Below, one piece after another: positions 20,752 to 55,137 of a stretch of DNA of 64,000 bases. The position numbers were made by a program, and so were the translations under genes. The notes below the pieces were generated by a model. That model did no database searches and was not told where the DNA came from. It was given only the letters and a program-made list of their open reading frames with translations. The DNA is taken from the NCBI RefSeq assembly GCF_016446395.1, contig NZ_CP051168.1:3621579-3685578 (forward strand), read 5' to 3'. The stretch is from [Phormidium] sp. ETS-05 (lineage in GTDB: Bacteria; Cyanobacteriota; Cyanobacteriia; Cyanobacteriales; Laspinemataceae). Every line of letters begins with the position of its first letter. The first letter of the stretch is position 1.

Positions 20752-21200
20752 TGTCCTTAGTCATTTGTCCCCTTCGGCAAGCTCAGGGCGGGCTTGGTCA
20801 TTTGTCCTTGGTCATTTGTCCTTGGTCATTTGTCATTGGTCATTGGTCATTGGTCATATAAGTGATAATTTGTTTGTATTTATTGTTAAAATTTTGATGT
20901 TTGGTTCATATGAACAAGTGACAAAGGACAAAGGACAAGTGACCAAGGACAAAGGACAAGAAGCAAAGGATAGCCGATACTTTATACTTGATAGTTGATA
21001 GTTGATAGTTGTCAATTGTCCGTAGGGGCACGGCGTCATCAAGATTTGGGTGAAACGATAAAGATTAATGATGCCGTGCCCTTACCAAGTGACAAAGGAC
21101 AAAGGACAAGTGACAAGTGACAAAGGACAAAGGACAAAGGACAAGTGACAAGTGACAAAGGACAAGTGACAAAGGACAAGTGACAAGTGACAAAGGACAA
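20752..21200. repeat. Composite STRR arrays (TTGGTCA, TTTGTCC, GGACAAA, GTGACAA) flanking a long-stem hairpin element (21022-21086).
   Basis: Read directly from the sequence. The arrays are upstream of the kinase gene. Confidence 0.9.
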
Positions 21201-30433: not shown

Positions 30434-33077
30434 TTAGCTGTCACTGCGTGGGGGCAGGGGGTTGACTAAACCGCTGGCGGTACTAAATAAGTTGATGGGG
30501 TTTTTGCCATCGGTAATCAGTACGCTTTGGATGCCAAGACCTTCTAGCAAACGAGCCTGCATTTCTGGGCCTGCTTGAGCGATCGCCCGGAGGGTTTCTG
30601 TCCCGATCGCTGCCACTTTCTCGGCAAATTCCCGGCTAGTAATCTCCGCCATCGCCTGGGCTTTTTGCACTTCCAAATTGCTCAAAGCCTGCTGGTGTGC
30701 CAATTCTGCCTCTTGACGTGCCCTCATTTGCGCCAATTCTGTCTCAGCACGGATGCGGGTCGCTTCGGCTTCTTGTTGCGCCATACTTACGGCTAATTCC
30801 CCTTGAATGCGAGCCGCTTCGGCTTTTGCTCGCGCTGCCGCGATCGCCTCTCCCGTAGATTCAATAGCCGCGTTTTCCGCCTTTGATTCTAGCAGATTTT
30901 TCCGCTGTGCTTCCGAAGCCGCCTTATCAATAATTGCCTGCCTTTCTAACCGGGCTCGCTTCCTGTTCCAACCGCGCCGCATCCTGTCGCGCCGCCGCTT
31001 CTTGAGCATCCGTAGTAATTTTAATCGCCAACTGCACCGATTTCTGTAAACTCTTTAACGTTTCCTCATCCACCGGTTCCACCGATTGAATATCCACGTT
31101 AAAAATCACCAGATTATTCGTCCTGAATCGGAATTCATCGCGCACGTGCCCTTGGTCATCTAAGCCAAACACTGCTTGGCGAATAATCCGCGCCGAATTG
31201 CGGTGAAATTCATCAAAAGAAACACTAGCCACCGCACCCCGCACGCGAGAAGCAATAGCTTTACAAGCCGTATCCACAAAATCAGGCGCTTGAAACAGTT
31301 TGGCCGCCTCATCTTGATTGGTTTTATCTACATTAAAATACCAATTATAAGACAAGCGCAATTGTAACCGGGCGTGGTCTGCAGTTTCCACCGCAAACAA
31401 ATCGGTCATAAAGTCGGGTCCTAACAGCAAAGCCAGAGATTTAATCACATGGGGACGCTTGGGCACTCCTCCCGATAAACTCAGCACCGTAAAGGCTTCG
31501 TCTGGACCTAACATCACCAAATCTGGGCCAAACACAGTCCGGGCAGTTCTTTCCTTATAATCGTGAATCTGTACTGCCGCATTTTGGGGCACGTGAAACA
31601 CCACGGCGCGAGTTTTATCTCTTTGAAAGCTAGATTTCTGCTCGCCATCTTGGCGATATCTGCCCCGTTCAGAAACTGGGTCATTTTTAATCGCCAGCAA
31701 CTCTTCTACGATAGGCGGTACATCTTTTTCCCATAATTCTTCATAGGGACTGAGCATATATGCTCGCGGACCGCTGACTACTTTTAATTCCCCCGTTTGC
31801 ACGTCCCGGACGTAGATGCCTTCATTTTTATCTAAGGGAATGGCTTGGCGTTTTTCTACTACTTCCACCTCCACGCGGGGAATGTATTCTCGCGGTCCGG
31901 ATATCATCCATAAATCCCCCGGTTGACGGTGGATGATTTGGTCGCCTTCACCTTCATCGAAGGCTTCATTAGCCCGGAGTAACAAGGCTTCTTGTTCGCT
32001 GAGGACATAAATTCGGCGAATGCCCTCCGGTTGACCTTCAGAATCATCATCATCCGTATAGTAGGGGATTTCCAACTCTTCTCCGGGATGGAGGAAAAAG
32101 GAGATTCTCCCTTGACGGACTTCTCGTTTCCCTAGTTGCGGTTTGCCCAATTCATCGATGGGGTTGAAGACGATGCACCATTCCCGATCGCTCAGGGTGG
32201 TAATGGGTACTTCTCCCACCACTTCTTCATAGACATCGGGGATATGAATTTCCGCATCTTCTATAGTTACGAGCCATTCATCCCCAGCTTTGCGCCGCCG
32301 TCCGAAAATATCGGTAAAAGTCCGTTTAGCGCGCAAGTGTAAAGCGGTTTGTTCTGTTAATACATAAGCATCAATCAAGTCGATAACTTCTTCATCGACT
32401 CCGGGTAAATAAGAGCCTTCTTCTCTTACCAGCCATTCTTCCCCAGCGCGGCGCCTTTGTCCCGTGCGATCGGTGCAATTTTGTCGCGCCATCAAATGCA
32501 GCGCCTGATTAGGTTTGATAATTATCGCTTTCACCGTAGCGATAACTTCCACTTCCACGCGAGGAATATAAGTTCCTGGACCTTCAAATAGCCATTCATC
32601 CCCCGCCAACTGGTGGATAACGTTGTTTTGATTGTCAGTATAGGATAAATCTCTAATCGCTCGCAACCGCAGAGCTTGATTTCTTTCTACTACCTGCAAA
32701 AGCTGGACTTTTCCCTCGATTTCTTCCCCCGGATATACTGGGAAAGGCTCTTGCTGAAAGCGGATTTCTCGGTCGCCATATCGGAGTTTAATTTGACCGT
32801 GAGTATCCGCTACTGGTTGCCCCGACTCATCCCGCAATACGGGATTTTTTACTACGCAATAATGCCTAGGCGGCACTACGGTCATTTGCTGGGGTGACAT
32901 TACTACCCGTTCTTGGTCTCGCAGAGTAATCGTTTGGGGGCCAACTTCCAAACGGGTAACGCCAGTGTTGTTATCCAAGACGTGAATAAACTGTTGGGGT
33001 TTGAGGCGGATCGATCCCCCAGATATTCCGGGGAGTTCGCTGGGAGTTTCCCCAATGCGATCGGCTTTAGTCATCAA
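30434..33077 (-). CDS. Major vault protein (MVP) homologue, split by a +1 frameshift near 30940-30960 into a 716-aa N-terminal ORF and a 191-aa C-terminal ORF.
   Basis: The N-terminus ...[53 protein letters not shown]... mirrors the eukaryotic MVP N-terminus (...YIHVLDQN..VEVGPKTY...VPPRHYC..). Multiple MVP repeat units follow. The second ORF is the Ala/Glu/Arg/Gln-rich cap-helix coiled coil. The combined length of about 880 aa matches MVP. Confidence 0.75.
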
Positions 33078-40437: not shown

Positions 40438-40613
40438 GTTTTTTGTCCTTTGTCCTTTGTCCTTTGTTATCAAAATGTAGGGGCACGGCATCATTAATCT
40501 GGAGGATTGACGAAAAATATTAATAACGCCGTGCCCCCTGTTTTGGGTAGTATAGCCCACCCTACTACTTTAAAAGGACAAAGGACAAAGGACTAATGAC
40601 CAATGACCAATAT

Positions 40614-41096
40614 TTAACGTTCTAACAGGTCAATCAGAAATTTTTTAGAGCCATTGGCTTCAGGGCGAAAGCCTAGGGGACAGATCAACAGCCCAACCAG
40701 AAACATCCCCAATGGTGTCAAATAGGTGGGATCAAAGGTGGCACTGGAGAAAGCGGCAATTAACACCCCCACGGCGGCTTGTCCCACCACACTCAACCAA
40801 ATTGCCATAAAAACCATCACAAATGGGTGCATGGTCATTTCAATATGAATTTTACTGCCTGTGCCGTCAGGGTAAATGCGGCCTTTGATGACCGGGATAA
40901 AAGAGTTGCGATAATTGATAATCCGGCTAATCTCGAAATAACTCTCACTAATTTTCCCTTGGTATGGTTTATCCGGCTTGGTCATTCCCCATCGGATATT
41001 GCGGCTGGGAGGTTCTACGACTGAGATTAACTTTTCTCGGACGATATCGGGAGGCAGAGCGGTGGTGATGGTGAAACGCTCGAACGGGAAAATCAT
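40614..41096 (-). CDS. Hypothetical membrane protein.
   Basis: 160 aa with two C-terminal TM helices and no motif. Confidence 0.4.
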   Translation of the reverse strand: MIFPFERFTITTALPPDIVREKLISVVEPPSRNIRWGMTKPDKPYQGKISESYFEISRIINYRNSFIPVIKGRIYPDGTGSKIHIEMTMHPFVMVFMAIWLSVVGQAAVGVLIAAFSSATFDPTYLTPLGMFLVGLLICPLGFRPEANGSKKFLIDLLER

Positions 41097-41325
41097 ACCT
41101 CGCCCTCAAATGCGCTCTCCCCATTCTGGCACAAAAGTTCGGAGTTGAGCTTTAGCCGAAAAGGGGACGGGGAGACGGGGGGACGGGGGGACTTCTGGAC
41201 CAGGGGACTAGGGGACGGGGAGACCAGGGGACCAGGGGACGGGGGGACCAGGGGACTGGGGACCGTCACCCCCTCACCCCGTCTCCCCGTCCCTTTGGGT
41301 GTTGGGTTTCGTTCCTCAACCCAAC

Positions 41326-44300
41326 CTACCAAGGAGTGCCAATCAGAGTAAATGGGGCCCAGTAGTAGGGGTGAGTAAAATCGAGGTCGGCTTGCTTTGG
41401 CTTCACCTCGCCGCGCAACATGGCTATTTGTGCTTGCTGTAGGGCCTCGACTTTGGTGGGGGACTGTCCGAGATTCTGGTAAAGTTGCGCCATGAGTTCT
41501 GAGGTGCCGCCGTCGCTGACTTCCCACAGGGTGGCGATCGCGGTTTTTACCCCCGCTTGCACCGATAAGCCTGCAAACCCCATTTCCGCGTCCCGGTTGC
41601 CCACGGCGGTTTCACAGGCACTGAGTACGAGTAATTCTACCGAGCGATCGCCATACCATTGCACCTGGCGTAAATCTTCCAAATGCTTCTGGCCATCCCA
41701 AAATTGGATGTAGTTATTATCCTTATTCTGGAATGCGGCATGGGTGGAAATGTGAATGATGTTAAACCGCTGGCTTTGGCGAGCTTCAGCGAGATTCGCT
41801 AACGTAGCTTGTTCGTTGCGATAAATGGCGACTCCATTCGGCCATGAAGAGTTGATGGCGTCCAGTGTTTCATTTACCCCCAGGAGGTTTTCTAATTTTT
41901 TGACATTGGCCAACCTCTCAAAATCAGATATTCCCATTGCCAACACTTCCCCATCCTGCAATCTGTTGTAGGTAGCGTCACTGAAGGAAGAACTACTGAT
42001 AATTTGGGCTACTTTGTATTTCTCTACCAGAAATTGTTGGCCATCATGCAAAGCTGCTATCGGTAGCAGACTCATACTATCTGGCAGCCCAAATATTAAT
42101 GTGTTGATTCCCAGGGATTGCAACTCTGCTTCCAAAGGTTTAATCAGGATATTATACAGAATTTGTGCATCATGTACTACAGATGTTTTGGCTGTGTTCT
42201 TATCACGTACACTATTGTGAAATAATTTCACCATTTCTTTCAATTCATCAATTTTATTGGTAGTAACTATCTCCTCAACCAGTTGTCCTTCACTATTGAT
42301 GCGGCGCTGGATGCGATGTTCTGTCAGTGGATAGACAGAGGTTGGTCGCCCAGAACCAGTCAACATCACTAACCGCATTCCTATCCCTTTTTGGTCATCT
42401 ACATAAATGATTGCGGGTTTTAAGCTTGTCTCCCGACTTATTTTAGTAAGCATTTCGCGCATTTGAGTTTCGCTTTTGGTTTTCGGTAGCTCTTTATTGC
42501 GCAAATACTCGGTATATTCATTAGTGCGCTGTTGATCAATCAAATCGAATAGGCTTTCTCCATTAGCAGGAGGAGAGGTCGGTAAATTGCTGGCGGGGTT
42601 GAGATTGGGACTCTGTGGTGGCGCCAGGAATCGGGGATTTTTGGGGTTATCACGTCCCAGGGAAACTGGTTCAGTGGTAGGGTTGCTGCTATCCCCTGCA
42701 TTAGGAGAAACTCCATTCCCTTGATTGAGTGGTTGCTCTGTTGGGGGGGTTGCTGGTGCGGGTGCTACGGTTCCGGGAAAATCGGGAGCCGCATTCGGGG
42801 TTGAAGTTTGGTTAACGGTGGGTTGGTTGTATGGGCGCTGATACTGCTGAAGACCAAGGGAAAGTTTCACCGAAGGCTCGATTATCAGAATATTATCCGA
42901 CAATACAGGGCCAATGGTTATGCCTTGGGGAGCTTGTAATGTAATTTGTGCATCGGGAAATCCTGACCCAGAATTGGCGTCTAAAGCACCGGTGACAATA
43001 CGTCCCACGTCAGAGTTTAAACTGATAATTCCCGCTTGTTGATTTTCAGAACGGCTAGTAATGTCGCCGGTGGTGATATTTTGGTTGGCATTTATCTGGA
43101 CGTTACCGGCTGGTCCGTCGATCGCGCTACCATTCACATCACCCAGATTAACTTCACCTGCGGTACTGGTGATGGTGACATTGCCAGCAGCATTCAGGGG
43201 AGTAGGTTCTGGGCCGCTAGTGGGTGTTGGCGCCACAACTGTGGCAGTGGGAGTGGGGTTATTCACTACAGGAGCAGCAGTGACTGACGATGGCGATATG
43301 TTGGCGGGAGCAATTACTGGCGAAGCAGTGGCGGTAGCAGTTGCTGGTGATGTGGTGGTGGGGGTGGTTGGTCCAGCAGAAGTATTGATATTTCCCAGAT
43401 TGATATCTCCAGGAGCTGTGGCGGTAACGCCGCCACCAGAACCATTACTGGCAGAACTGCTGTTGATATCACCGATGGTAATGCTGCCTTCTGTACTGGT
43501 GGCAGTAACATCACCTGCATTTCCAGAATTAACGTTGGTGCTAATATCCTCGGCGGTAACGTTTCCAGCAGCTTGTAAGTTTACCGGTCCACCTGTACCC
43601 ACGTTGGCTTTAGTAGTGAGAATGTTAGCGGTGACATTGCCGTTTGTGCTGGTAATAGTGATGCTGCCGCTGGTTCCCAGTGCGGTTGCGGGAAGAGCGG
43701 GGGAATTACTCGTGGCTGGTGGAGTGGTGGCTGCAGGTTGTGCCGGAGCTGTGGCTGTAGGTTGTGCCGGAGCTGTGGTTACAGGTTGTGGTGTGGGAGT
43801 CGTGGCTGCAGGTTGTGCCGGAGCTGTGGTTACAGGTTGTGCCGGAGTGGCGCTAGCTGGTGGAGTCGTGGCTGCAGGTTGTGCTGGATCTGTGGTTGTT
43901 GGCGGGGGACTGTAGTTGGTAGAGGCATCAACATTACCCACGGTGACATTATTGTTACCGGATACACCAATATTTCCCGCATTTCCCTGCTGCGCGGAAC
44001 TATTCAAATCTTCGGCTTTAACGCCGCCTTCGCTGCTGTTGACTGAAATATTGTTGCCGTTGCCTTCTAAGCCCGATCGGCTATCGATACTCCCAGTGTT
44101 AACATCATCTGTGGCGTTGATGCTAGTTTCTCCGGCATCCCCTTCTACGGTTGATGTCACCACAGTGGGATTGCTAACGGATTCCTCTCGACCGTCCGTG
44201 GTCTCCACTTCGATTTTAATTCCTGAATTGCCGTTATTGGGAGTTGTGCTGTCACTGTCGCCGGTTTGAGTGTCAGTACCATCATCAGTAGGGGTATCTT

Positions 44301-46401
44301 CAGATGGAGGGGTTGTTGGTTCTGGTTCTGGCTGTGGTTCCGGTTCTGGCTGTGGTTCCGGTTCTGGCTGTGGTTCTGGTTCCGGTTCTGGTTCCGGTTC
44401 TGGTTCCGGTTCTGGTTCCGGTTCTGATGTAGTGGGTGGTTTTGGGGCGATCGGCGTAATTTTCACCGGTCCAGCCAGCAAACCCTGACCCGGTAAAGAC
44501 ATAGTTTCTGAAGGAGTTAGCGTCACCGAACCATCATCATTACAAGCCACAGTTCCCGATGCACTGGTGCCGCAATTGTTCTGGAAAAAATCATACACAG
44601 CGCCGCTGGTAATGGTAATACTGCCACCCACTTCTATGGTGATACTGCCTGCATTTCCGAACCAAGTGCCAGTTATGGTTTCTCCGATATTAATATTCTC
44701 AGCCGCTTTCAGGTAAATAGGGCCACCATCACCGGACATAGAGCCAGTAGTAATCACGCCACCGGTCAAATTAGCGCCGCTCGTGAGGGAAATAGAGCCA
44801 CCATTGCCATTAGGCGCATTTGCATCTATCCCCCCAGCATTGATATTGCCAGTAGCATTGACCGTAATCGAACCTGCATCGCCGCCGTACTTAGTGTTAA
44901 CGGCTAGATGAGTACCGCCAGAAAAGGCAGGAATCATCCCAAAATCGCCCCCAGCGGTGATATCAATCGTGCCACCACTTCCCTCCTTGCTAACAGCACG
45001 AACTTTATCCGTAGCAATGTTGCCTCCGGCGTCTAAAATAATACTGCCTGCATCCCCTTTCTGCCATACGCTAGCTTCTACCTGACCAGTGGTAATATCA
45101 TTCATGGCTCGAATTTCTATATTGCCGCCATGACCGGAGTCCGTCGTAGCGCCCACGTTTTCAAGTTTAATGCTACCGTTAGTGCTGTTAATGGTGATGT
45201 CGGCAGCAGTTCCACTCGCGCTATAGCCACTAATTAATCCTGTGGCATTAATATCGCCGTTGGCGTCGATGGTGATGTCACCTGCATCAGCAGCAGCAGT
45301 GGAAGAAGAATTGAGGGAACCGGTTATCTCAATTTTGCCATCACTATTGATATGGATATCTCCCCCCGGCGAACCACCGGTATTGATACTGTCAAGAGTG
45401 ATATCCCCTTTTGCTTCCAAGGTGACGTTACTACCTGCAGCATTGAGGGTTCCAGCGTTCAGAAAACCGCCAGACAGAAGATGGATACCACCACCAGCAA
45501 TACCAGATGTAGTGGTGGCATTTGTGGCAACTAAAGCGCCGTTTTCTATTTTGACTCCAGAACCGGTCAAGTTTACAGTACCATCGGCATTTTTTTGCAC
45601 TCCCGTGGCATGAGTGGCGACACCCCCCGTGAGCAATCCCGGTAAATCTAGCGGAGAAAATGTCAAATCATTAGGCAGACTTCCCGCCGCACTGCTAGGG
45701 ATGATATCCAAACTCAACAACATACCATCTTGACTCAGGCGCAGGACATTGCCACCGTCCACCGATGCTATATTTATTTGGCCACCTGGTGCAGTTAAGC
45801 TACCGGTACTGATGACTGTGCCTCCGAATAGGTTTAAATTTTTTCCCTCTAATACGGATAAATTACCAGAATTGATAATTGTCCCCGGTTGGGACATGGT
45901 GAAGGCAAATTGATTGGGGGTTCCGGTTAAATTGGTGTAGTCGTTATTGCCAATGGCGTTAAACCAGTTGCTGCCTAAACCTATGCCATTGGCGGTAGTT
46001 GCCGTAAATGAACCCATAACGTTTAATTGGGCGTTGGCACCAAAAACAATTCCCGCTGGATTCATTAGAAACAAATTGGCATTGCCGCCCGTCACCTGTA
46101 TTAGCCCATTAATTAGTGAGGCATCGCCGCCAACTACACGACCGAGGATGTTTTGAATGGTGGGGTTTGTCTGGAAATTGGCAGTTTGTCCAGAATCGAG
46201 ATTAAATTGGTCAAAACTGTGAAATAGATTCGTCCCCCCGGTTGTACCGTCTTTAATATCTATGGTGGTGCCGTTAATATTGATATTGGTGTTGGTGGGG
46301 TTGCCGGTTTCTGGGGTGATTTGTGCCAGAACTGGTGTCCCAGCTAATCCGATTCCTAATGGTAGTAGGCATAAAGCTGTATGCAATCCTGATGGTTTCA
46401 T
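41326..46401 (-). CDS. Giant secreted two-partner-secretion exoprotein: N-terminal haemagglutination (TPS) domain, beta-helical repeat body, Pro/Thr/Glu-rich linkers, and a C-terminal CHAT (caspase-like) protease domain.
   Basis: Signal peptide. The TPS domain ...IDIKDGTTGGTNLFHSFDQFNLDSGQTANFQ...NILGRVVGGDASLINGLIQVTGGNANLFLMNPAGIVFG. Gly/Asn/Thr-rich beta-helix repeats. (PEPE/PQPE)n linkers. C-terminal CHAT His/Cys dyad (IIHISTHAAF ... LLVLSACETAVG). Confidence 0.75.
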   Translation of the reverse strand: MKPSGLHTALCLLPLGIGLAGTPVLAQITPETGNPTNTNININGTTIDIKDGTTGGTNLFHSFDQFNLDSGQTANFQTNPTIQNILGRVVGGDASLINGLIQVTGGNANLFLMNPAGIVFGANAQLNVMGSFTATTANGIGLGSNWFNAIGNNDYTNLTGTPNQFAFTMSQPGTIINSGNLSVLEGKNLNLFGGTVISTGSLTAPGGQINIASVDGGNVLRLSQDGMLLSLDIIPSSAAGSLPNDLTFSPLDLPGLLTGGVATHATGVQKNADGTVNLTGSGVKIENGALVATNATTTSGIAGGGIHLLSGGFLNAGTLNAAGSNVTLEAKGDITLDSINTGGSPGGDIHINSDGKIEITGSLNSSSTAAADAGDITIDANGDINATGLISGYSASGTAADITINSTNGSIKLENVGATTDSGHGGNIEIRAMNDITTGQVEASVWQKGDAGSIILDAGGNIATDKVRAVSKEGSGGTIDITAGGDFGMIPAFSGGTHLAVNTKYGGDAGSITVNATGNINAGGIDANAPNGNGGSISLTSGANLTGGVITTGSMSGDGGPIYLKAAENINIGETITGTWFGNAGSITIEVGGSITITSGAVYDFFQNNCGTSASGTVACNDDGSVTLTPSETMSLPGQGLLAGPVKITPIAPKPPTTSEPEPEPEPEPEPEPEPEPQPEPEPQPEPEPQPEPEPTTPPSEDTPTDDGTDTQTGDSDSTTPNNGNSGIKIEVETTDGREESVSNPTVVTSTVEGDAGETSINATDDVNTGSIDSRSGLEGNGNNISVNSSEGGVKAEDLNSSAQQGNAGNIGVSGNNNVTVGNVDASTNYSPPPTTTDPAQPAATTPPASATPAQPVTTAPAQPAATTPTPQPVTTAPAQPTATAPAQPAATTPPATSNSPALPATALGTSGSITITSTNGNVTANILTTKANVGTGGPVNLQAAGNVTAEDISTNVNSGNAGDVTATSTEGSITIGDINSSSASNGSGGGVTATAPGDINLGNINTSAGPTTPTTTSPATATATASPVIAPANISPSSVTAAPVVNNPTPTATVVAPTPTSGPEPTPLNAAGNVTITSTAGEVNLGDVNGSAIDGPAGNVQINANQNITTGDITSRSENQQAGIISLNSDVGRIVTGALDANSGSGFPDAQITLQAPQGITIGPVLSDNILIIEPSVKLSLGLQQYQRPYNQPTVNQTSTPNAAPDFPGTVAPAPATPPTEQPLNQGNGVSPNAGDSSNPTTEPVSLGRDNPKNPRFLAPPQSPNLNPASNLPTSPPANGESLFDLIDQQRTNEYTEYLRNKELPKTKSETQMREMLTKISRETSLKPAIIYVDDQKGIGMRLVMLTGSGRPTSVYPLTEHRIQRRINSEGQLVEEIVTTNKIDELKEMVKLFHNSVRDKNTAKTSVVHDAQILYNILIKPLEAELQSLGINTLIFGLPDSMSLLPIAALHDGQQFLVEKYKVAQIISSSSFSDATYNRLQDGEVLAMGISDFERLANVKKLENLLGVNETLDAINSSWPNGVAIYRNEQATLANLAEARQSQRFNIIHISTHAAFQNKDNNYIQFWDGQKHLEDLRQVQWYGDRSVELLVLSACETAVGNRDAEMGFAGLSVQAGVKTAIATLWEVSDGGTSELMAQLYQNLGQSPTKVEALQQAQIAMLRGEVKPKQADLDFTHPYYWAPFTLIGTPW

Positions 46402-46459
46402 CTTATTTTTACTTCATGTGTATTCGGTGATTTATCCCCTACTTTCAAAGGGGGTTGGG

Positions 46460-46800
46460 GGATTCTTTTGTCTTTGGTCATTGGCTGTAGGGGCACGGCG
46501 TCATTGAGATTTCTCGTGAAACCCAGATATTAATGAGGCCGTGCCCCTACCACGGGATGATTTTTTTCATATGTGCAATTGTTATTTGTCGTTGGCCATT
46601 GGTTGTGGGGGCACTGCGTTATTAAGATTTCTCGTGAAACCTAGATATTAATGAGGCCGTGCCCCTACCAGGGGAGGCTTTTTTCATATGTGCAATTGTC
46701 ATTTGTACTTGGTCATTGGTTGTGGGGGCACGGCGTTATTAAGATTTCTCGTGAAACCCAGATATTAATGAGGCCGTGCCCCTACCACGGTAGATTGAGG
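46460..46800. repeat. Three tandem copies of an approximately 120-bp unit, each containing a 21-bp-stem hairpin (GTAGGGGCACGGCGTCATTAA ... TTAATGAGGCCGTGCCCCTAC).
   Basis: Units start near 46486, 46606 and 46726. Single copies of the hairpin occur at 21022-21086 and 40478-40543. Confidence 0.85.
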
Positions 46801-46827
46801 TTCGGGGTACGGTGCCAGGGATGCCCA

Positions 46828-47916
46828 TTACGGCTGTAATTTTTGTAAGTTTTGCACTCGTGTGACATCACCTAATGTTTCATAACCTTGAATTGCCTCC
46901 TGGAGAAATCGCTGGGCTTGGGGGGTATCTTTCAGGGCGGAATAAATTTCTGCCAATTTTGCCGCTGCTTCGGTTTTGATGACTAAATCGGGGGTTTCAG
47001 TGGCGAGTTGGAAGGCTTGGAGATAGTTGTTTATGGCTAGCTGGTTTAGTTGTACTTCCTCGTACAAACCTGCTAGGGTGTGGTAAATTTGGGCTGATTT
47101 TATATTGGCACTGATGGCGGTTTCTAGGGTCTCAATGGCTTCGGCTCTTAACTTATATTTCTGGTATAATATGACTTGGGCTAGAGTCTGCGTGGGTTGG
47201 CCTGGTTGCTGCTGACTTAGTTCGGTGAGGTCGGCTTGGAGGTTGGCTCTTTTACTGTCATCAAGTATGGTGAATCCGAGCTGCATTCCGGGGTCATCAG
47301 TGGAACTAGCCCCGCTGTCGGTGATGATGGTAATTAAGTAATATTCTCCGGGTTGTAAGGGGGTTTCGCCTCCATAAACTACTTGATTGGTGGTGACTTC
47401 TGTTTTCCAATCGACTCCGACTCCCCGCACGCGCACGCGATAGCTGTTGGCTCCGGTTACGGCGTTCCAGCGGATGGTTGGGGTTGGGGAAAGTAGGTGG
47501 GTGCGGCGGGGACTGATGAGATAGGGAAGGTTGGCATCGATACCGGCGATCGCGTCCCCCATAGTGGGATCGGGATTCACAGTCGGCACCGGACAGATAT
47601 TTGCTACCCCTGACGGACTGCCACTGGGTACAGGCTGTGTGGTGCCGTTGCTGCATTGCAGCTTGACTTGGCTCCCGGCGGCGGGCCAAATTAAATCGCC
47701 GTTATCCAGGCTGGTGCCTACGGCGGCGGGTTGGTAGCTGCTCCACCCACTACGTTTGATAGATACTTGTCCGGTGGCGGTGAGGATCGTTCCCAGGGAA
47801 GCGGCGACGGCGGTTGGGGCAGTGGTGAATGCCCCAGTCACCATGATGGACGTGGTAAGTCCGAGGGAACTAAAGCGGTTTAAATACAGGTTTTTGGTGA
47901 GAGTTTGACTGCACAT
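46828..47916 (-). CDS. Secreted FecR-domain protein with C-terminal TPR repeats.
   Basis: Signal peptide. FecR-like GQVSIKRSGWSSYQPAAVGTSLDNGDLIWPAAGSQVKLQCSNGT. C-terminal TPR-like helices. It is paralogous to the ORF at 51545-51916. Confidence 0.55.
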   Translation of the reverse strand: MCSQTLTKNLYLNRFSSLGLTTSIMVTGAFTTAPTAVAASLGTILTATGQVSIKRSGWSSYQPAAVGTSLDNGDLIWPAAGSQVKLQCSNGTTQPVPSGSPSGVANICPVPTVNPDPTMGDAIAGIDANLPYLISPRRTHLLSPTPTIRWNAVTGANSYRVRVRGVGVDWKTEVTTNQVVYGGETPLQPGEYYLITIITDSGASSTDDPGMQLGFTILDDSKRANLQADLTELSQQQPGQPTQTLAQVILYQKYKLRAEAIETLETAISANIKSAQIYHTLAGLYEEVQLNQLAINNYLQAFQLATETPDLVIKTEAAAKLAEIYSALKDTPQAQRFLQEAIQGYETLGDVTRVQNLQKLQP

Positions 47917-49615
47917 CTAATTGCCTCTGTTGCATCAGCATAACTTCATAACTTACCAACCGTTGCTGAGCCATATCAATCCACTTACTTTCTTCGGGAG
48001 TAGTAGTGGGTTGAGCGTAACGCAGACAGTTTTCCCACTCGGTCAAAGCTGCCTTTGGTTGGTTTTGGTTTTCTAGCACTTGCGCTAATAAGCAGTAAGC
48101 GGAGGCTCGTTCTGGGTTGAGGCTGATAGCCATCCGCAAATTGGCTTCGGCGACTGCATAGCCTTTTTGGATAGCTCTTGCCCATCCCAAGTTTTTGTGC
48201 AGGGAATATTTCACCCCATTACTAAAATTGTTTTTCTGTAGTTCAGGCAATATTAGTTGTACTGCTGCCTCGGGATTTCCCGCTAGAATTTCCAACCGAG
48301 CTAAATTATTTACCGCTGGGGTGTAGCCTTTTTTGGCGGCTTTGTAGTAATACTCTTTGGCTAGGTTTTGGTTGAAAAAAGGCTGTTTTTCATACAGCAA
48401 ACCCAGATTATTATAAGGTTTGGGGTAATTGGGTTTGACCCAAATGGCGGTGTGATACCAAAATTCGGCTTGTTCTGGGTTTGTGGTTCCTGCGGCTTGT
48501 CCTAACCGGGTGCAAAAGTCGGCTATGGGTTGCAGAGTTAGCTGCAAGCCAATACACAATATCAATAAGCTGATGGCCGATCGCCGCATTTGCTGTGGGG
48601 AAAACGGCCATGAGAAGATGATTCCTAGACGCAGGTTCTGGCGACGAAACTCCCCAGAGATGTGAGGATTTGAGGGATTTTCCTCGGTGCTTTCTGAGGG
48701 AGCATCATAAAGATGCTGTAGCCGCTCTAACAGCACTTGGGGATTGGCTGGTCGCTGCTGGGGGAGAGGGGATATCATTTGGTCGAGCAAATCTGCCAAC
48801 GGTTTGGAGATTCCCTCTACCCGATCGCGCCATAGCAGTTTATTGGTGCGCCGATGTTTGGGCAAATCGTCGGGATATGAGCCGGTGAGCAAATGGACGA
48901 TCGTGCAGCCAAGACCAAAAATATCTGATTGGGGAACCGCCCCCCCGCTGCGCTGTTCTGGTGCGGTGTATCCATAGGAACCCACCGGCGTCACAGCGCG
49001 ATTAATAAACCCCACGTTGCCAAAGTCGATTAATGCTAATTCTCCGTTAGCTTTCAGGATAATGTTGCTGGGTTTGATATCCCGATGCAGCAATCCTTCT
49101 TCATGTACGTAAATCAGCAGTTGGGTGATTTGGCGCAACCAATTTACCGCGATCGCTTCGGTAATCTCCCCATTTTCCTGGAGCCATGCTCGGAGGTTAG
49201 TCCCCTCAATCTGCTCCATTACCAGACAGGGCAATTGCCTGTGAGCATCTAGAGAAATGGTGAAGAAGCCATCCGGTTCGACCCGAGGCAAACCGGGATG
49301 ACGCAACCGCTTTAATATGGTGGCTTCTCGTTCAAACAGAGTTTGGGCGCCGGTTTCCTGCATTTTGAGAACTTTCAGCACTTTGGGCCAGTCCTCTCGG
49401 TCAGGATTGATGTCCCAGTCTTCCACCTCAAAGACATCGGTTGTGTATTCTTCGTCCAATTGCCGCAGGGGTTTGGCGAGGCGATAGCGATCGTTGATCA
49501 GCAGTGGCGTACCGCAACTGAGACAGCGAGAGCCATCATCGGGGTTGAAGCGGTTGATACAACGGGGGTTAATGCAGTAACACCCGATTTCGGGGGGTTG
49601 ATTAGCGGCAGTCAT
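47870..49615 (-). CDS. Membrane Ser/Thr protein kinase with an N-terminal zinc-ribbon and C-terminal TPR/Sel1-like repeats.
   Basis: CINPRCINRFNPDDGSRCLSCGTPL zinc ribbon. Kinase subdomains (HRDIKPSNIIL, IDFGNVG, GSYGYTAPE). A TM helix, then TPR-like repeats. Confidence 0.8.
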   Translation of the reverse strand: MTAANQPPEIGCYCINPRCINRFNPDDGSRCLSCGTPLLINDRYRLAKPLRQLDEEYTTDVFEVEDWDINPDREDWPKVLKVLKMQETGAQTLFEREATILKRLRHPGLPRVEPDGFFTISLDAHRQLPCLVMEQIEGTNLRAWLQENGEITEAIAVNWLRQITQLLIYVHEEGLLHRDIKPSNIILKANGELALIDFGNVGFINRAVTPVGSYGYTAPEQRSGGAVPQSDIFGLGCTIVHLLTGSYPDDLPKHRRTNKLLWRDRVEGISKPLADLLDQMISPLPQQRPANPQVLLERLQHLYDAPSESTEENPSNPHISGEFRRQNLRLGIIFSWPFSPQQMRRSAISLLILCIGLQLTLQPIADFCTRLGQAAGTTNPEQAEFWYHTAIWVKPNYPKPYNNLGLLYEKQPFFNQNLAKEYYYKAAKKGYTPAVNNLARLEILAGNPEAAVQLILPELQKNNFSNGVKYSLHKNLGWARAIQKGYAVAEANLRMAISLNPERASAYCLLAQVLENQNQPKAALTEWENCLRYAQPTTTPEESKWIDMAQQRLVSYEVMLMQQRQLDVQSNSHQKPVFKPL

Positions 49616-49642
49616 GGCGGCACCCCATAGTTTGATTGATTT

Positions 49643-51247
49643 TTAACTGGCGAGGGAATTTCCAGCCGGATCGGGCGGTAGGGCTTTGATTAATGATTGG
49701 ATGTTGTCAGCGGCATAGCCGACTTCAAACAGAGACCGATCGCCCAGCCAGCCTAGTAACCGATTATATCGCTCTTCCACTTTCTTTTGACTGCGGAACG
49801 CCTTACACAGCCGCTCGTTTACCTGTTGTAAAATTGGGTGTTCCGTCACAGCATCGCCGCTATCTGATCCTAGAGACCCTTTCCCCAGGTCATGGCTTCT
49901 TAACAAGCTCAATTTTTCGGCGTCTTGGGTTTTCACTGCCTCCATAATTTCGTTGCCAGCTTGAACCACCAGTTGATTCGTCACATATTCCAGCACCATC
50001 GGTTGCAGACTAAACCGAGCGCTGCCGGACTCAGTGATTTTTTCAATCAGGTTGCGCCGTCCCAGAGATTCTAAAGCCTCTAGGAGTTCGGCCTGATGTT
50101 CCGATAGTTCGATATCGTCTTGCAGGGTAAAGAATGTCACCGGTTGGCGCTCGATCGCCAGCCAGTAGAGAATTTCTTTCTCAAACTCATACAAGCGCTC
50201 AAACTGAAAGTCCAGCAAATCCCGAATGTTGCCAAACACAAAGGTTTTTTGCTTCAGGAACTCGGACACATTGCCGCCAAACAGCTCTTTAATCGTGGTA
50301 GCGACAATCTTTAAAGCCAAAGGATTGCCTCGGTAGAGGCGCGTTAGCTCTACCCACTGCTCCGGTTCCGATAACCCTTTAGCGCGGAAAATTTCCCACG
50401 ATTGCTCTTCGTCTAATTCCCTTAGCTCCATCACCCGCACGGGCATGGTTTCACCTTGCAGCAAGGCAATATCGTCGATTTGCTCCAGACTGGTAATCAC
50501 CAAGCAGCTTTGGTGGGATTCCGTGGCCACTCGTTTGATGAGATTGCCATAATCTTGATAGCTATCGCCATAATGCCCCGCTAGGTTGCCACTTCTGAGA
50601 ATCGCTTGGGCGCTATCTAGCACAATCAGACAGCGCTTGGCTTTCAATGTATCCATCAGTCGCGATATCCTGTCGTCAGTTTCATATGGTGGGCTGACGC
50701 CGGGGGCGAAAAATTTAATCAAATCTGCCAGCAGTTCCCTGGCTGGGGGAGCGTCCCGCAGACTGCGCCAAATTACTCCATCAAATTGGTCTTGAATTTG
50801 TTTGGCGAGTTTGATGGCTAGGGTGGTTTTGCCAATTCCCCCCATCCCGCAAATGGCGACCAAACGACAGCGATCGTTTAGTATCCACCCGGCTAAGGTG
50901 TCTAGCTGTTCGCTGCGACCGTAAAAAATGGACACATCGGGTGCTTCTCCCCAGTCGCGGCGGGGTTCTCCGTCCCACTCGAGGCTACTGCCATCTGGTG
51001 TTTGCCCCCGAGACAAAGCCAAGAGATGCTGCTGTAGTTTCGCCAGCTTCACAGGCCCGCGCCCCGGAATCTCAAATTTTTTGTAGATGTCGCTCAGGCG
51101 CTTGCGTACTAGGTCTTCGCTAATCTCGACTTTGGCGGCGATCGTCGGTGTTGATTCTCCCTTCATGGCTAGGGACAACACATGGAACTCTCCATCGGAA
51201 ACTTGCTTCTCGTCGGCGATGGCTTTTAACAGGTCCTCCTGAATCAC
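49643..51247 (-). CDS. STAND-class NB-ARC ATPase with an N-terminal LuxR/sigma-70 region-4-like HTH; no C-terminal repeat sensor domain.
   Basis: HTH segment LSLAMKGESTPTIAAKVEISEDLVRKRLSDIYKKF. Walker A VAICGMGGIGKTTLA and Walker B RCLIVLDSAQ. NB-ARC-type helical region. Confidence 0.7.
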   Translation of the reverse strand: MIQEDLLKAIADEKQVSDGEFHVLSLAMKGESTPTIAAKVEISEDLVRKRLSDIYKKFEIPGRGPVKLAKLQQHLLALSRGQTPDGSSLEWDGEPRRDWGEAPDVSIFYGRSEQLDTLAGWILNDRCRLVAICGMGGIGKTTLAIKLAKQIQDQFDGVIWRSLRDAPPARELLADLIKFFAPGVSPPYETDDRISRLMDTLKAKRCLIVLDSAQAILRSGNLAGHYGDSYQDYGNLIKRVATESHQSCLVITSLEQIDDIALLQGETMPVRVMELRELDEEQSWEIFRAKGLSEPEQWVELTRLYRGNPLALKIVATTIKELFGGNVSEFLKQKTFVFGNIRDLLDFQFERLYEFEKEILYWLAIERQPVTFFTLQDDIELSEHQAELLEALESLGRRNLIEKITESGSARFSLQPMVLEYVTNQLVVQAGNEIMEAVKTQDAEKLSLLRSHDLGKGSLGSDSGDAVTEHPILQQVNERLCKAFRSQKKVEERYNRLLGWLGDRSLFEVGYAADNIQSLIKALPPDPAGNSLAS

Positions 51248-51544
51248 GCCTTATTCCTCCCTTTAACTTCTTGGTACTCTATCATACCCGTGAAAAAAAC
51301 GCAAGGTTTTTTTCATCCTCGTGCGATTCTGGGCTTTGGCGTTTCTAACCTTTTTATATCAAAGGTTAGCCGCCATATTCATAGATGCCTTATCATCGCA
51401 TAATTCCATTATTGGTCATATGAGTTAATTTTAACCTCCTGGGGTATGTAAATTTTTGTTGCAAAAATCCCCAGCTCGGCAAAAAAAGCCAAATTTCCCC
51501 CCGATAGAAGGTTGACGGCTATTCACTGCTGGGGACCGTGCTAG

Positions 51545-51916
51545 ATGTCAACCAAAATTACTGTGAGGGGAATTTCCACGAACCTGCTGGGGTGGGCAAT
51601 GCCGATCGCCACGGCTGCAGTTGCAGGGCTGGTAATATCTCCCCTGCTCACACCCGGGAGAGCCGATGCAGCCACCAGTGTGGGCGCGATCAGCAGCGCC
51701 TCTGGAACCGTATGGGTTAAACCCAGCAACTCCAGCCAATATTATGCCGCCCCTGTAGGCACCACATTATATGTTGGGGATTTGATTTGGCCCGACGCCG
51801 GGAGCGAAGTGATTCTGGAATGCAGCAGTGGGAAAAAATTGCGCGTTCCCAGCGGTGTTCCCTCCGGGGTCACGAATATTTGTCCCCTACCCCAGTCTGA
51901 GGACACTGGGATTTAA
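51545..51916 (+). CDS. Small secreted FecR-like domain protein, paralogous to the N-terminal domain of the ORF at 46828-47916.
   Basis: Signal peptide LLGWAMPIATAAVAGLVISPLLTPGRADA. GTVWVKPSNSSQYYAAPVGTTLYVGDLIWPDAGSEVILECSSGKKLRVPSGVPSGVTNICP aligns with the paralogue. Confidence 0.45.
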   Translation: MSTKITVRGISTNLLGWAMPIATAAVAGLVISPLLTPGRADAATSVGAISSASGTVWVKPSNSSQYYAAPVGTTLYVGDLIWPDAGSEVILECSSGKKLRVPSGVPSGVTNICPLPQSEDTGI

Positions 51917-52066
51917 ATTGTCTGTTATCGCGGAAATTCTCTGTGGTCATACTTCGCCCCTACAGATTGACACCCTACTGGCTAGCCAGAAATAGCGCTC
52001 CAGAAACCGGGTTTCTTTCACCCTGCGACTAGCCAGAAGGTTTCTTTCCCTTGCCCATATTGTTGA

Positions 52067-52363
52067 TTAGCGGCGCAGCACCGAACTGATAATTATTGTA
52101 ATCGTCGCACTAGCAATCAGAGTAAAAGCCAGTTGCACCACCCACGGCATTGCTTGCTGGTAGTTGGCAAAGCGATCGTTAAACTTCTCCGAGTCTCTTG
52201 ACAGCTTGTCAACTTCGGTGGTCAGCTTGTCAACTTCGGTGGTCAGCTTGTCAACATCAGTCGATAGCTCATCTAACTTTTCTATGACATCCGCTAAGGT
52301 TGGTTCTTGATTGGCTGTCCTGGTCATCTGTGTACCTTTCCCTCGATAATTGTATTTGACCAT
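52067..52363 (-). CDS. Small coiled-coil protein with a C-terminal TM helix (XhlA/holin-accessory-like topology).
   Basis: (VDKLTTE)x3 heptad repeats, then the hydrophobic C-terminus WVVQLAFTLIASATITIIISSVL. Confidence 0.35.
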   Translation of the reverse strand: MVKYNYRGKGTQMTRTANQEPTLADVIEKLDELSTDVDKLTTEVDKLTTEVDKLSRDSEKFNDRFANYQQAMPWVVQLAFTLIASATITIIISSVLRR

Positions 52364-52508: not shown

Positions 52509-52952
52509 ATGTCAAGTCAAAACGATAAAGAAATGGGAAAAGTTTTCGCCAGTATGACGATCGTTAACCGAGCTGACCAAATTTTGGCAGAAGCGGGGGT
52601 GATACCAGAAGACCAAATCCGATCACTCCACCTCAAAAACGTCCTAGTGGATACCGGAGCAACCACCTTGTGTTTGCCACCAGAGTTAATTAGCAAGCTG
52701 GGACTAAAAATCCTCAAAGAGGTAGATGTAGCCACAGCAATGGGCATTGGCAAAGCCCGCATTTTCCGAGATGCCTCCATCTTGATATCTGACCGAGAAG
52801 GAACCTTCGAGTGTTTGGAGCTACCGGGGGGTAGCGAACCGCTACTGGGAGTAATTCCTTTAGAATCTTTGGGCTTAGAAGTAGATTTGCAAAATCAAAC
52901 CTTAAAGCTCTTGCCCATCAGTCCCACCGAAACCTATTTGACGATTTTGTAG
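52509..52952 (+). CDS. Retropepsin-like (clan AA) aspartic protease, copy 1 of a tandem triplication.
   Basis: The catalytic NVLVDTGATTLCLPPELISKLGL (D-T-G-A) motif and a 147-aa size are typical of bacterial retropepsin-like proteases. Confidence 0.7.
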   Translation: MSSQNDKEMGKVFASMTIVNRADQILAEAGVIPEDQIRSLHLKNVLVDTGATTLCLPPELISKLGLKILKEVDVATAMGIGKARIFRDASILISDREGTFECLELPGGSEPLLGVIPLESLGLEVDLQNQTLKLLPISPTETYLTIL

Positions 52953-53112: not shown

Positions 53113-53556
53113 ATGTCAAGTCAAAACGATAAAGAAATGGGAAAAGTTTTCGCCAGTCTAACCATCGTTAACCGAGCCGACCAAATTCGCGCCGAGGATG
53201 GGACAATCCCCCTAGACCAAATCCGATCGCTCCACCTCAAAAACGTCCTAGTGGATACCGGAGCAACCACCTTGTGTTTGCCACCAGAGTTAATTAGCAA
53301 GCTGGGACTAAAAATCCTCAAAGAGGTAGATGTAGCCACAGCAATGGGCATTGGCAAAGCCCGCATTTTCCAAGATGCCAAAATCTCCATATATGACCGA
53401 GAAGGCACTTTCGAGTGTTTGGAGTTACCGGGGGGTAGCGAACCGCTACTGGGAGTAATTCCTTTAGAATCTTTGGGCTTAGAGGTAGATTTGCAAAATC
53501 AAACCTTAAAGCTCTTGCCCATCAGTCCCACCGAAACCTATTTGACGATTTTGTAG
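53113..53556 (+). CDS. Retropepsin-like aspartic protease, copy 2.
   Basis: About 90% identical to copy 1 and has the same DTGA motif. Variable patches IRAEDGTIPLDQ and QDAKISIYD. Confidence 0.7.
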   Translation: MSSQNDKEMGKVFASLTIVNRADQIRAEDGTIPLDQIRSLHLKNVLVDTGATTLCLPPELISKLGLKILKEVDVATAMGIGKARIFQDAKISIYDREGTFECLELPGGSEPLLGVIPLESLGLEVDLQNQTLKLLPISPTETYLTIL

Positions 53557-53717: not shown

Positions 53718-54159
53718 ATGTCAAGTCAAAACGATAAAGAAATGGGAAAAGTTTTCGCCAGTCTAACCATCGTTAACCGAGCCGACCAAATTTTGGCAGA
53801 AGCGGGGGTGATACCAGAAGACCAAATCCGATCGCTCCACCTCAAAAACGTCCTAGTGGATACCGGAGCAACCACCTTGTGTTTGCCACCAGAGTTAATT
53901 AGCAAGCTGGGACTAAAAATCCTCAAAGAGGTAGATGTAGCCACAGCAATGGGCATTGGCAAAGCCCGCATTTTCCAAGATGCCAAAATCTCCATATCTG
54001 ACCGAGAAGGCACTTTCGAGTGTTTGAGTTACCGGGGGTAGCGAACCGCTACTGGGAGTAATTCCTTTAGAATCTTTGGGCTTAGAGGTAGATTTGCAAA
54101 ATCAAACCTTAAAGCTCTTGCCCATCAGTCCCACGGAAACCTATTTGACGATTTTGTAG
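53718..54159 (+). CDS. Retropepsin-like aspartic protease, copy 3. It is a mosaic of copies 1 and 2 and is frameshifted near 54025-54040.
   Basis: The N-terminal part equals copy 1 (ILAEAGVIPEDQ) and the middle equals copy 2 (QDAKISI). Two single-G losses (gtttggag to gtttgag; ccgggggg to ccggggg) truncate the ORF at FECLSYRG*. The downstream sequence still encodes the conserved C-terminus out of frame. Confidence 0.5.
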
Positions 54160-54418: not shown

Positions 54419-54745
54419 ATGAATCAACCGAATCAAATCCCCGAAATTATGAAAAAAACCAGCCAGGAAATCAAGAAAATTTATGGCGATCGATTAGACA
54501 GAATTATTTTATTTGGCTCCCAAGCTAGAGGCGATGCTAGACCCGACTCAGATATTGATGTTATGATTGTCTTGAAAAATAATTTCAATTATTTTCAAGA
54601 AAGCCAGCGCATCAGTGAGCCGATCGCGGACTTATGTTTAGAGTATAATGTTTTAATTAGCTGTGCCTTTGCCACCCGCGAACAATTTCAACAGCGCAAC
54701 ACCGGATTCTTCCGCAACATCCGCCGCGAAGGAGTTGCTCTATGA
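54419..54745 (+). CDS. mntA: Nucleotidyltransferase (MNT) antitoxin of a HEPN/MNT pair.
   Basis: GSQARGDARPDSDIDVMIV is the minimal nucleotidyltransferase motif. It overlaps the downstream HEPN gene by 4 nt. Confidence 0.85.
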   Translation: MNQPNQIPEIMKKTSQEIKKIYGDRLDRIILFGSQARGDARPDSDIDVMIVLKNNFNYFQESQRISEPIADLCLEYNVLISCAFATREQFQQRNTGFFRNIRREGVAL

Positions 54746-55137
54746 CTCCCGAACAACAAATCCTGTTAGATAAAGCAGCCAGAAGCCTGCAAGCTGCCCG
54801 GGAGCTAAACCAGACAGGTTTTGCCGAATTTGCCGCCTCCCGCGCCTACTACGCCATGTTTTATGTAGCCACAGCATTTCTCGAAGGAGAAGGACTATCC
54901 TATGCTCGACATTCAGCCGTTATTTCTGCTTTTGGTCAACAATTTACTAAAACTGGAAGAATTCCTGTTAAATATCACCGTTACCTCATTGATGCCGAAA
55001 GAAATCGTTTAAGTGCTGATTACGATTTAGAACCGAATATAACCACAGCAGAAGCCGAGCAGATAATATCTTATGCCGACGAAATATTAAATTTTGCCCG
55101 CGCTAATATGGATTCTCTTCCTCCCCCCTCTCCTTAA
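54742..55137 (+). CDS. hepT: HEPN-domain toxin of the HEPN/MNT module.
   Basis: 131 aa. HEPN-type helices SRAYYAMFYVATAFLEGEGLSYARHSAVISAF. The ATGA start overlaps the MNT stop. Confidence 0.8.
   Translation: MTPEQQILLDKAARSLQAARELNQTGFAEFAASRAYYAMFYVATAFLEGEGLSYARHSAVISAFGQQFTKTGRIPVKYHRYLIDAERNRLSADYDLEPNITTAEAEQIISYADEILNFARANMDSLPPPSP

Follow-up and report, generated by a model that had tools for sequence, protein, structure and literature searches.

The genome of the filamentous cyanobacterium [Phormidium] sp. ETS-05 carries, within a 64-kb stretch of DNA that was analysed as a whole and will be referred to as the window, a tight run of genes encoding a STAND ATPase, a membrane Ser/Thr kinase and small exported proteins, next to the gene for a giant secreted protein with a CHAT protease domain. 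This arrangement raises the question of whether the genes form a unit at all and, if so, which of them make up its core and what it might do. A first-pass annotation of the window had interpreted the run as a signalling or conflict module. The domain content fits such an interpretation, but the core proved to lie elsewhere: it consists of a transmembrane (TM) protein with a TPR domain, an exported protein designated C and an exported CHAT protease, with the ATPase and the kinase as one of several interchangeable cytoplasmic modules.

A discrete and conserved gene block

Three of the genes are located on the minus strand: A (49643-51247), an open reading frame (ORF) of 534 amino acids (aa) for the STAND ATPase, B (47870-49615, 581 aa) for the membrane Ser/Thr kinase and C (46828-47916, 362 aa) for an exported MtxA-like protein. 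The plus-strand gene D (51545-51916, 123 aa), encoding an exported single beta-domain protein, is divergent from A. The stop codon of A and the start of B are separated by 27 nucleotides (nt), and B and C overlap by 47 nt. Positions and spacings had been given exactly by the first-pass annotation, as judged from the ORF list and from RefSeq, in which A to D appear as the consecutive proteins WP_199245452-455 with identical lengths. RefSeq lists D as 'hypothetical' and C as 'LPS assembly protein LapB / TPR protein', of which the designation 'LPS assembly protein LapB' is misleading. C is followed on the minus strand by the gene for the TPS-CHAT exoprotein (41326-46401, 1691 aa; TPS, two-partner secretion) and by that for E160 (40614-41096, minus strand), a 160-aa protein with two hydrophobic helices (hydropathy peaks at aa 95-113 and aa 125-143) and no Pfam or PADLOC match, which is the end gene of the block common to the closest relative. 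The six-gene block E160-TPS/CHAT-C-B-A-D spans positions 40614-51916.

A first search for close relatives of C yielded only 23, and the few with organism names belonged to oscillatorian cyanobacteria. In the loci L001 and L002 (78% identity), D, A, B, C, TPS-CHAT and the 160-aa membrane protein are all repeated, the E160 ortholog being 86% identical and in the equivalent position, and in L001 the spacings between A, B and C are identical to those of ETS-05. Locus L003 from Oscillatoria sp. SIO1A7 (41% identity) shows the order STAND, kinase, Uma2 insert, C and TPS-CHAT, and lacks E160. The insert, a gene for a Uma2-family endonuclease (L003 9406-9990), separates kinase and C and abolishes the usual overlap of the two genes. 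In L005, STAND, kinase and C are followed by a signal-peptide TPR-rich protein truncated by the contig end. The overlap between the B and C genes amounts to 4 nt in L005 and L004 and to 1 nt in L089.

Comparison by tblastx showed where the conserved unit begins and ends. Similarity to the window was confined to positions 40595-51917 for L001 and to 41326-51259 for L003, and the flanks were unrelated in both cases. Since similarity stops at the edges of the block and the flanks vary among genomes, the unit is a discrete block. Despite these unrelated flanks, synteny is kept in relatives at 41-92% identity, and the order STAND-kinase-C-CHAT is maintained even at 41-53% identity, so that the genes form a module. 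Their adjacency is not due to chance, and the first-pass annotation passes the test of synteny in relatives that it had set itself. Four independent genes that merely happen to be neighbours would leave this synteny unexplained and are extremely improbable; a scan for consensus promoters and terminators, in which the counts equalled those in shuffled sequence, neither backed nor excluded separate transcription. The first-pass annotation had correctly placed the cluster beside the TPS-CHAT gene, but more than abutment is involved, as the CHAT gene and E160 lie inside the conserved block. It had also pointed to retropepsin and toxin-antitoxin genes in the vicinity; the retropepsin-like genes and a HEPN gene are indeed located there, but their proximity is not conserved, as the flanks of L001 and L003 differ.

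The divergent intergenic region between D and A (51248-51544, 297 nt) is the presumed promoter region for both transcription units. It is 86% identical to its counterpart in L001, with conserved blocks at either end, and footprinting was uninformative because this sole ortholog is too close. The GTG start codon of A is preceded by GGAGG, 8 nt upstream.

Domain architecture of the encoded proteins

Protein A is, to judge from profile matches, an NB-ARC-clade STAND NTPase with a predicted LuxR-type DNA-binding helix-turn-helix (HTH). Its core NB-ARC/NACHT domain (aa ~104-309, nt 50321-50938), which is followed by a helical C-terminus, scored 59.1 bits against the NB-ARC family PF00931 (cut-off 23.5) and 27.4 bits against NACHT (cut-off 26.7), and the Walker A motif GMGGIGKT and the Walker B motif (hhhhD, with h for a hydrophobic residue; LIVLD in A) are conserved across 13 homologues. 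The GerE/LuxR HTH (PF00196; aa 17-63, nt 51059-51199) reached 23.5 bits, exactly the Pfam cut-off (E 4e-5), and several homologues carry a precomputed PF00196 assignment. No repeat family of Pfam or NCBIfam matched A, the C-terminal TPR, WD40 or LRR sensor that is typical but not obligatory for the family being absent, so that both the N-terminal HTH and the lack of sensor repeats are as first described. At least 2271 homologues exist, named in their sources as LuxR/CsgD-family or NB-ARC proteins; most of the 120 listed are ~520-600 aa long and without repeat domains, and a few have WD40 repeats. The family is large in cyanobacteria: a relative is encoded by 584 of the first 600 pattern-matched stretches from one-genome-per-species contigs. 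In 13 of the best 80 A-family loci a 4-Cys kinase gene lies directly downstream, and in a further one (L079) the kinase is found further along. The ectodomain of the kinases next to A-family genes is of the TPR, CHASE2 or WD40 type.

Protein B has the features predicted of a bitopic Hanks-type Ser/Thr kinase with a 4-Cys prefix. A 4-Cys zinc ribbon (aa 13-38, nt 49502-49579; 29.2 bits against NF045510, cut-off 24) precedes the kinase domain (aa ~59-316, nt 48668-49441; PF00069, 114 bits), in which the HRD, DFG and APE motifs occur as HRDIKPSN, IDFG and TAPE. A single TM helix (aa 347-365, nt 48521-48577, hydropathy 1.92) follows an Arg-rich stretch, which places the kinase in the cytoplasm and the C-terminal TPR domain (aa 370-581, nt 47873-48508), also matched by Pfam and here termed B-type, outside the cytoplasmic membrane. 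Zinc ribbon, TM helix and TPR repeats had all been recognized from the start. The B-type TPR domain recurs upstream of C in other fusion contexts.

Protein C was predicted by AlphaFold2 (predicted local distance difference test score, pLDDT, 85) to contain three domains behind its signal peptide: a beta domain (aa 39-112, nt 47581-47802), an FN3 domain (aa 128-218, nt 47263-47535) and TPR repeats (aa 220-360, nt 46837-47259). The sole structural match of the beta domain is the retention module fold of LapA/MpIBP (5ix9, MpIBP region I), and the FN3 and TPR part superposes on MtxA (Big+TPR fold, 4z29). With signal peptide, beta region, FN3 and TPR, C is MtxA-like in architecture. Searched against PDB sequences, the profile of the C family matched consensus FN3 (FN3con, E 6e-4) and generic TPR proteins, but not MtxA itself. 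Protein D combines a hydrophobic N-terminus with one beta domain and is predicted to be exported; 58% identity to the N-domain of C over 74 aa (E 1e-23) makes it a true paralogue, in line with the divergent duplication originally proposed. The retention-module profile NF033682 matched D alone, which scored 17.5 bits where 50 are required. When D was compared by phmmer with 1.84 billion representatives, 59 clusters were obtained, ~36 of which have the full architecture of C and ~17 a stand-alone N-domain like D.

The first-pass annotation had described C as a FecR-like beta domain joined to TPR repeats and D as carrying the same domain. The TPR repeats were confirmed, the FN3 domain had been missed, and the FecR identity of C and D did not stand, as Pfam gave no FecR match even at E<=10 and the assignment was refuted at the level of the fold. 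That C is a FecR-type trans-envelope signalling protein acting as partner of the kinase is therefore highly implausible, its export, its beta-rich N-terminus and its position beside a membrane signalling protein amounting to a superficial likeness. Homology of C to DUF928 (PF06051), suspected from PTxxW and LxxGxYY motifs common to both, was likewise rejected: Pfam did not match C to DUF928, and hhalign gave a probability of 0.9% with three DUF928 proteins, so that C and DUF928 correspond in position only.

Within the C family, conservation is highest in IPYIISPRxTxLLxxxPTxRWN at the start of the FN3 domain (aa 131-151, window ~47464-47526), where P136, R137 and T139 do not vary among 8 diverse members. 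As this conservation exceeds what an FN3 A-strand needs, the motif may be a recognition or cleavage site.

The TPS-CHAT exoprotein starts with a signal peptide, which is followed by a TpsA domain (aa 26-227, nt 45721-46326) scoring 150 bits against PF05860 and 84 bits against TIGR01901; an NPAGI motif is present as well. The middle consists of Gly/Asn-rich repetitive sequence, which is probably beta-helical, and of Pro/Glu/Thr-rich linkers, and the C-terminus is formed by the CHAT domain (aa 1412-1688, nt 41338-42168; PF12770, 201 bits). The motifs of its predicted catalytic dyad, IIHISTHA for His and LVLSACET for Cys, are intact, as are the catalytic motifs of the kinase and NB-ARC domains. 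L001/L002 and L003 have kept the gene downstream of C, and L007 has a truncated TPS-CHAT-like gene in that position.

Census of the C family and surroundings of the block

Metagenomes were scanned with a hand-made degenerate DNA pattern for PY[ILV][ILV]SPRxTx[LIV]LxxxPx[LIF]xW, the most conserved motif of the family. The scan yielded at least 120 C-family loci, and all 120 of those listed carry the C-family FN3 domain. Dereplication at 85% C identity among the matches listed resulted in 78 clusters, on which the following counts for the C family rest. In 46 of the 55 cases that could be evaluated, the gene directly upstream of C, in the same orientation, encodes a B-type TPR domain. An exported CHAT gene was present in 28 of the 45 C contexts with enough flanking sequence, compared to 3 of 67 control loci (Fisher p = 1.3e-11), the controls being anchored on kinase-less A homologues and comprising 1.2 Mb of cyanobacterial DNA in total. 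Within 2 kb downstream of C, a CHAT or TPS gene was found in 23 of 32 cases. Among the neighbours of the C family, the exported CHAT protease recurs most constantly.

The upstream partner varies. The commonest subtype (43 clusters) has a protein of ~400-450 aa with three TM helices and a B-type TPR domain; in about a dozen loci a cytoplasmic CHAT-TM-TPR protein is accompanied by DUF1822 and a downstream TPS protein; and the kinase-TPR subtype comprises 6 clusters, 5 of them with a STAND gene alongside. The ETS-05 version with kinase and HTH-NB-ARC protein is a minority subtype of a much larger family. Single loci illustrate the range of gene orders: TM-TPR, C and TPR-CHAT in L006 and L090; a sigma-r4-like HTH protein, DUF1822, cytoplasmic CHAT-TM-TPR, C and TPS-CHAT in L007; and CHAT-TIR-AAA_35, AAA_35-TM-TPR (with AAA_35 as STAND domain), C and a signal-peptide TPR-CHAT protein in L089. 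Every upstream partner examined has a TM helix ahead of a TPR domain homologous to the B ectodomain, and signal-peptide-like N-termini were seen in most C proteins and in several, though not all, of the downstream CHAT proteins. These data identify TM-TPR, C and exported CHAT as the core, to which STAND and kinase are added as one of several interchangeable cytoplasmic modules. In the metagenomic locus L141, two kinase-TPR genes flank the STAND gene (kinase-TPR, STAND, kinase-TPR, C, CHAT), which suggests a local duplication of the receptor.

The intergenic spacer between C and the CHAT gene (426 nt) is filled with repeats, most of it being a tandem array of 2.8 copies of a 117-bp unit with hairpins (46467-46790; Tandem Repeats Finder score 543). 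Each unit bears a GGGGCACGGC...GCCGTGCCCC inverted repeat and resembles a small dispersed element of the MITE (miniature inverted-repeat transposable element) type, and partial dispersed copies lie at window 40477-40538 and 21015-21124. The spacers of L001 and L003 hold different repeats (heptamer arrays in L003). The 117-bp repeat is thus dispersed and does not belong to the conserved module. The possibility that this spacer contains a conserved regulatory RNA or element was considered and rejected, Rfam giving only sub-threshold chance matches. An array of ~12 copies of the octamer GGGGACGG lies just past the CHAT stop codon (41162-41263). It gives rise to an ORF at 41093-41527 that is probably spurious, since this ORF runs over the CHAT stop and is made up mostly of GGGGACGG repeats.

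Beyond D, a minus-strand gene (52067-52363) encodes a thylakoid membrane protein of the ssr2422 family (NF053525, 105 bits) and contains a perfect in-frame repeat of 2.6 copies of 21 nt (52202-52255) encoding (L)TTEVDK coiled-coil repeats. It is followed on the plus strand by two tandem full copies of a 147-aa retropepsin-like gene (gag-asp_proteas / Asp_protease_2; 52509-52952 and 53113-53556), with a possible shorter third copy at 53718-54041; these genes are not kept next to the module in relatives. A gene for a HEPN-domain protein (54742-55137, plus strand) overlaps an upstream 108-aa ORF by 4 nt, and the two (54419-55137) are probably an MNT/HEPN toxin-antitoxin pair. Two further genes lie on the other side of the block. 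A 716-aa ORF (30927-33077, minus strand) matches eukaryotic major vault protein, with four Vault repeat families and the shoulder domain of the protein at E 1e-16 to 1e-71, a bacterial homologue being unusual. A CheA-like hybrid with Hpt, HATPase_c, CheW and receiver domains (21262-23841, plus strand) belongs to a chemotaxis/motility-type cluster unrelated to the block.

Possible functions of the module

The reading that we prefer, though it falls somewhat short of being probable, is that the exported CHAT protease is monitored or controlled by C and the ectodomain of B, and that a signal then reaches A by phosphorylation. C and the B ectodomain would form a periplasmic complex that watches or controls, for instance, transit, tethering or activity of the CHAT protein. 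The state of the protease would be passed through the single TM helix of B to the kinase, the kinase might phosphorylate A in the manner of AfsK and AfsR, and A, as a nucleotide-dependent switch, could then change how the block, with D and the CHAT gene among its members, is transcribed. What we infer in this scheme is which proteins touch, in which direction the signal runs, that A is a substrate of the kinase, and the DNA targets.

The phosphorylation step is modelled on Streptomyces, in which the Hanks kinase AfsK phosphorylates AfsR, a STAND-type transcription factor that binds DNA through a SARP (OmpR-type) domain and ends in TPR repeats. AfsK carries PQQ-type repeats; it is not known to have a periplasmic TPR partner, nor is an exported protease known to take part. 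Common to both systems is a membrane-associated Ser/Thr kinase paired with an NB-ARC ATPase that bears an N-terminal DNA-binding domain, whereas A differs from AfsR in its LuxR HTH and its lack of repeats. NCBIfam matches of the ETS-05 proteins to AfsR (E 1e-6) and AfsK (E 2e-13) are weak and far below the equivalog cut-offs.

A parallel module was found in other genomes, where the order STAND-HTH, 4-Cys kinase with CHASE2, DUF928 and TPR-CHAT occurs with or without TPS. Kinases of the CHASE2 form are usually followed by an exported DUF928 protein and lie beside signal-peptide TPR-CHAT proteins and separate TPS proteins (L014, L018, L079); in L078 a TPR kinase is found with TPR-CHAT 2 kb away. 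These neighbourhoods have in common with the ETS-05 block the A family (41-45% identity), the family of 4-Cys kinases, the order of kinase, small exported protein and exported CHAT, and a TPS protein nearby. They differ in the sensor, which is CHASE2 there and TPR here, in the small exported protein, which is DUF928 there, and in the TPS and CHAT domains, which are separate proteins there and fused here. In the literature searched, DUF928 appears in one paper only, and the adjacency of CHASE2 and DUF928 is mentioned no more than in passing (PMC5587647); two large surveys of conflict systems (PMC7159879, PMC8195603) do not mention CHASE2/DUF928/DUF1822/CHAT modules of this type.

Several observations speak against the preferred reading. 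The commonest version of the core has no recognisable cytoplasmic signalling domain, so that the core may work entirely within the periplasm, and the kinase could feed into it instead of serving as its output. The 67 of 80 closest A-family loci without a directly adjacent kinase indicate that A is not strictly kinase-dependent. About 30-40% of the C contexts with enough flank lack CHAT, which is explained in part by short contigs, and the domain HMMs (hidden Markov models) of the census were home-made from few sequences. A TpsB protein (POTRA and ShlB barrel) was found neither among the scanned ORFs of the window nor among the large unassigned ORFs of 18 related loci that carry TPS, although a distant TpsB is possible. 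Finally, the length and repeat content of the C/CHAT spacer make co-transcription uncertain, and the CHAT gene probably has its own promoter.

The fold of the C N-domain, which is that of the LapA/MpIBP retention module, raises the possibility that the signal travels in the opposite direction. In such inside-out control, as in LapD/LapG/LapA, the cytoplasmic state of A and B would decide whether the B ectodomain sequesters C, and the plug domain of C or D would hold TPS-CHAT at the outer-membrane pore or release it. We consider this unlikely. The retention module of LapA and MpIBP forms the N-terminus of type-1-secreted RTX adhesins, whereas here the plug domain sits on small, separate Sec-exported proteins (C and D) and not at the N-terminus of the secreted giant, which uses two-partner secretion. 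The NF033682 score is far under its cut-off; LapG, LapD, LapE, a type 1 secretion system, a TAAG cleavage motif of the LapG type and a cyclic di-GMP domain were not found in the block; most C-family loci pair with signal-peptide TPR-CHAT proteins without a TPS domain; and several kinase-type C proteins have no N-domain at all.

Nor does MtxA of Magnetospirillum gryphiswaldense (MGR_0208, PDB 4z29) supply a function. It contains a signal peptide, a beta region, an FN3/Ig domain with an L-x-P-G-x-H corner and TPR (PMC4439547), and LQPGEYY of C sits at the corresponding FN3 corner. Its gene is followed by that of a CHASE2 adenylate-cyclase receptor, and deletion of mtxA gave no phenotype (PMC4439547), so that no function can be transferred to C. 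Sequence similarity between MtxA and C was not detected, the partner of C is a Ser/Thr kinase with TPR ectodomain and not a CHASE2 cyclase, and neither a CHAT protease nor a STAND protein has been reported for mtxA.

CHAT domains owe their name to their partnership with TPR domains. The His/Cys dyad and TPR partner domains are common to the proteins described here and to HetF of Anabaena and Csx29 of type III-E CRISPR (compare PMC9457339, PMC8406250). Both are cytoplasmic or divisome-associated, whereas the ETS-05 protein is exported via its TpsA domain, with B and C contributing the TPR domains in trans.

A role in conflict, be it anti-phage defence, programmed cell death or kin discrimination, would make STAND and kinase a regulated trigger, with the envelope trio sensing an invader or damage, or with the CHAT exoprotein attacking neighbouring cells. 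STAND NTPases and caspase-like proteases, both represented here, are described in the two surveys as characteristic of the conflict systems that are enriched in multicellular bacteria (PMC7159879, PMC8195603). Moreover, the block lies between unrelated flanks in different genomes, and the same core is coupled elsewhere to CHAT-TIR-AAA_35 and to cytoplasmic CHAT with DUF1822. The PADLOC HMMs for PD-T4-6 matched B at E 6e-91, and the mad6 and MkoA kinase HMMs matched it as well. PD-T4-6, however, is a single soluble kinase, and the match was limited to aa 13-316, that is, to the kinase catalytic region and the 4-Cys prefix. As the HMM set matches this 4-Cys kinase including its zinc ribbon, it may flag many cyanobacterial housekeeping or signalling kinases as defence. 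No known defence system was assigned: A, C, D, CHAT and E160 are part of no PADLOC system, and of these proteins only A gave a match at all, a weak one of its ATPase core to PDC-S27. The output domain of A is an HTH where a toxin would be expected of such a system; the CHAT domain shows conservation and not polymorphism (78% identity to L001, 46% to L003), with no immunity-gene pattern seen; and the toxin-antitoxin and retropepsin neighbours are not conserved. On balance we regard a conflict system as doubtful.

More far-reaching than our preferred reading, and to be taken as an improbable extension of it, is the proposal that the trio represents an unrecognised trans-envelope protease-signalling device of filamentous cyanobacteria, in which CHAT acts on or through C and the TPR ectodomain reads the event. 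CHAT may act at the near-invariant IPYIISPRxT motif of C, and the TPR ectodomain may be wired to a Hanks kinase and an NLR-like transcription factor, to a cytoplasmic CHAT or to a TIR/STAND pair. If true, this would be a bacterial counterpart of the extracellular protease cascades that feed receptor kinases and NLR-type switches.

The components of the block all belong to known superfamilies, whereas no description exists of their assembly, of the C family or of the B-type ectodomain. Through the census, what appeared to be a curiosity of a single genome becomes a family that has clear subtypes and numbers dozens of dereplicated members, and candidate pairs of partners emerge: B ectodomain and C, C and CHAT, B kinase and A. 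MtxA, a solved structure without a function, gains informative structural analogues, although homology to them was not detected at the sequence level. Filamentous cyanobacteria have greatly expanded sets of CHAT proteases, STAND ATPases and Hanks kinases, for hardly any of which a role is known; the locus described here ties the three together via two unnamed but well-defined domains, the B-type TPR ectodomain and the C family. If the trio relays extracytoplasmic proteolysis to transcription or to cell-death effectors, this would constitute a new signalling principle for cyanobacterial multicellularity, surface biology or defence.

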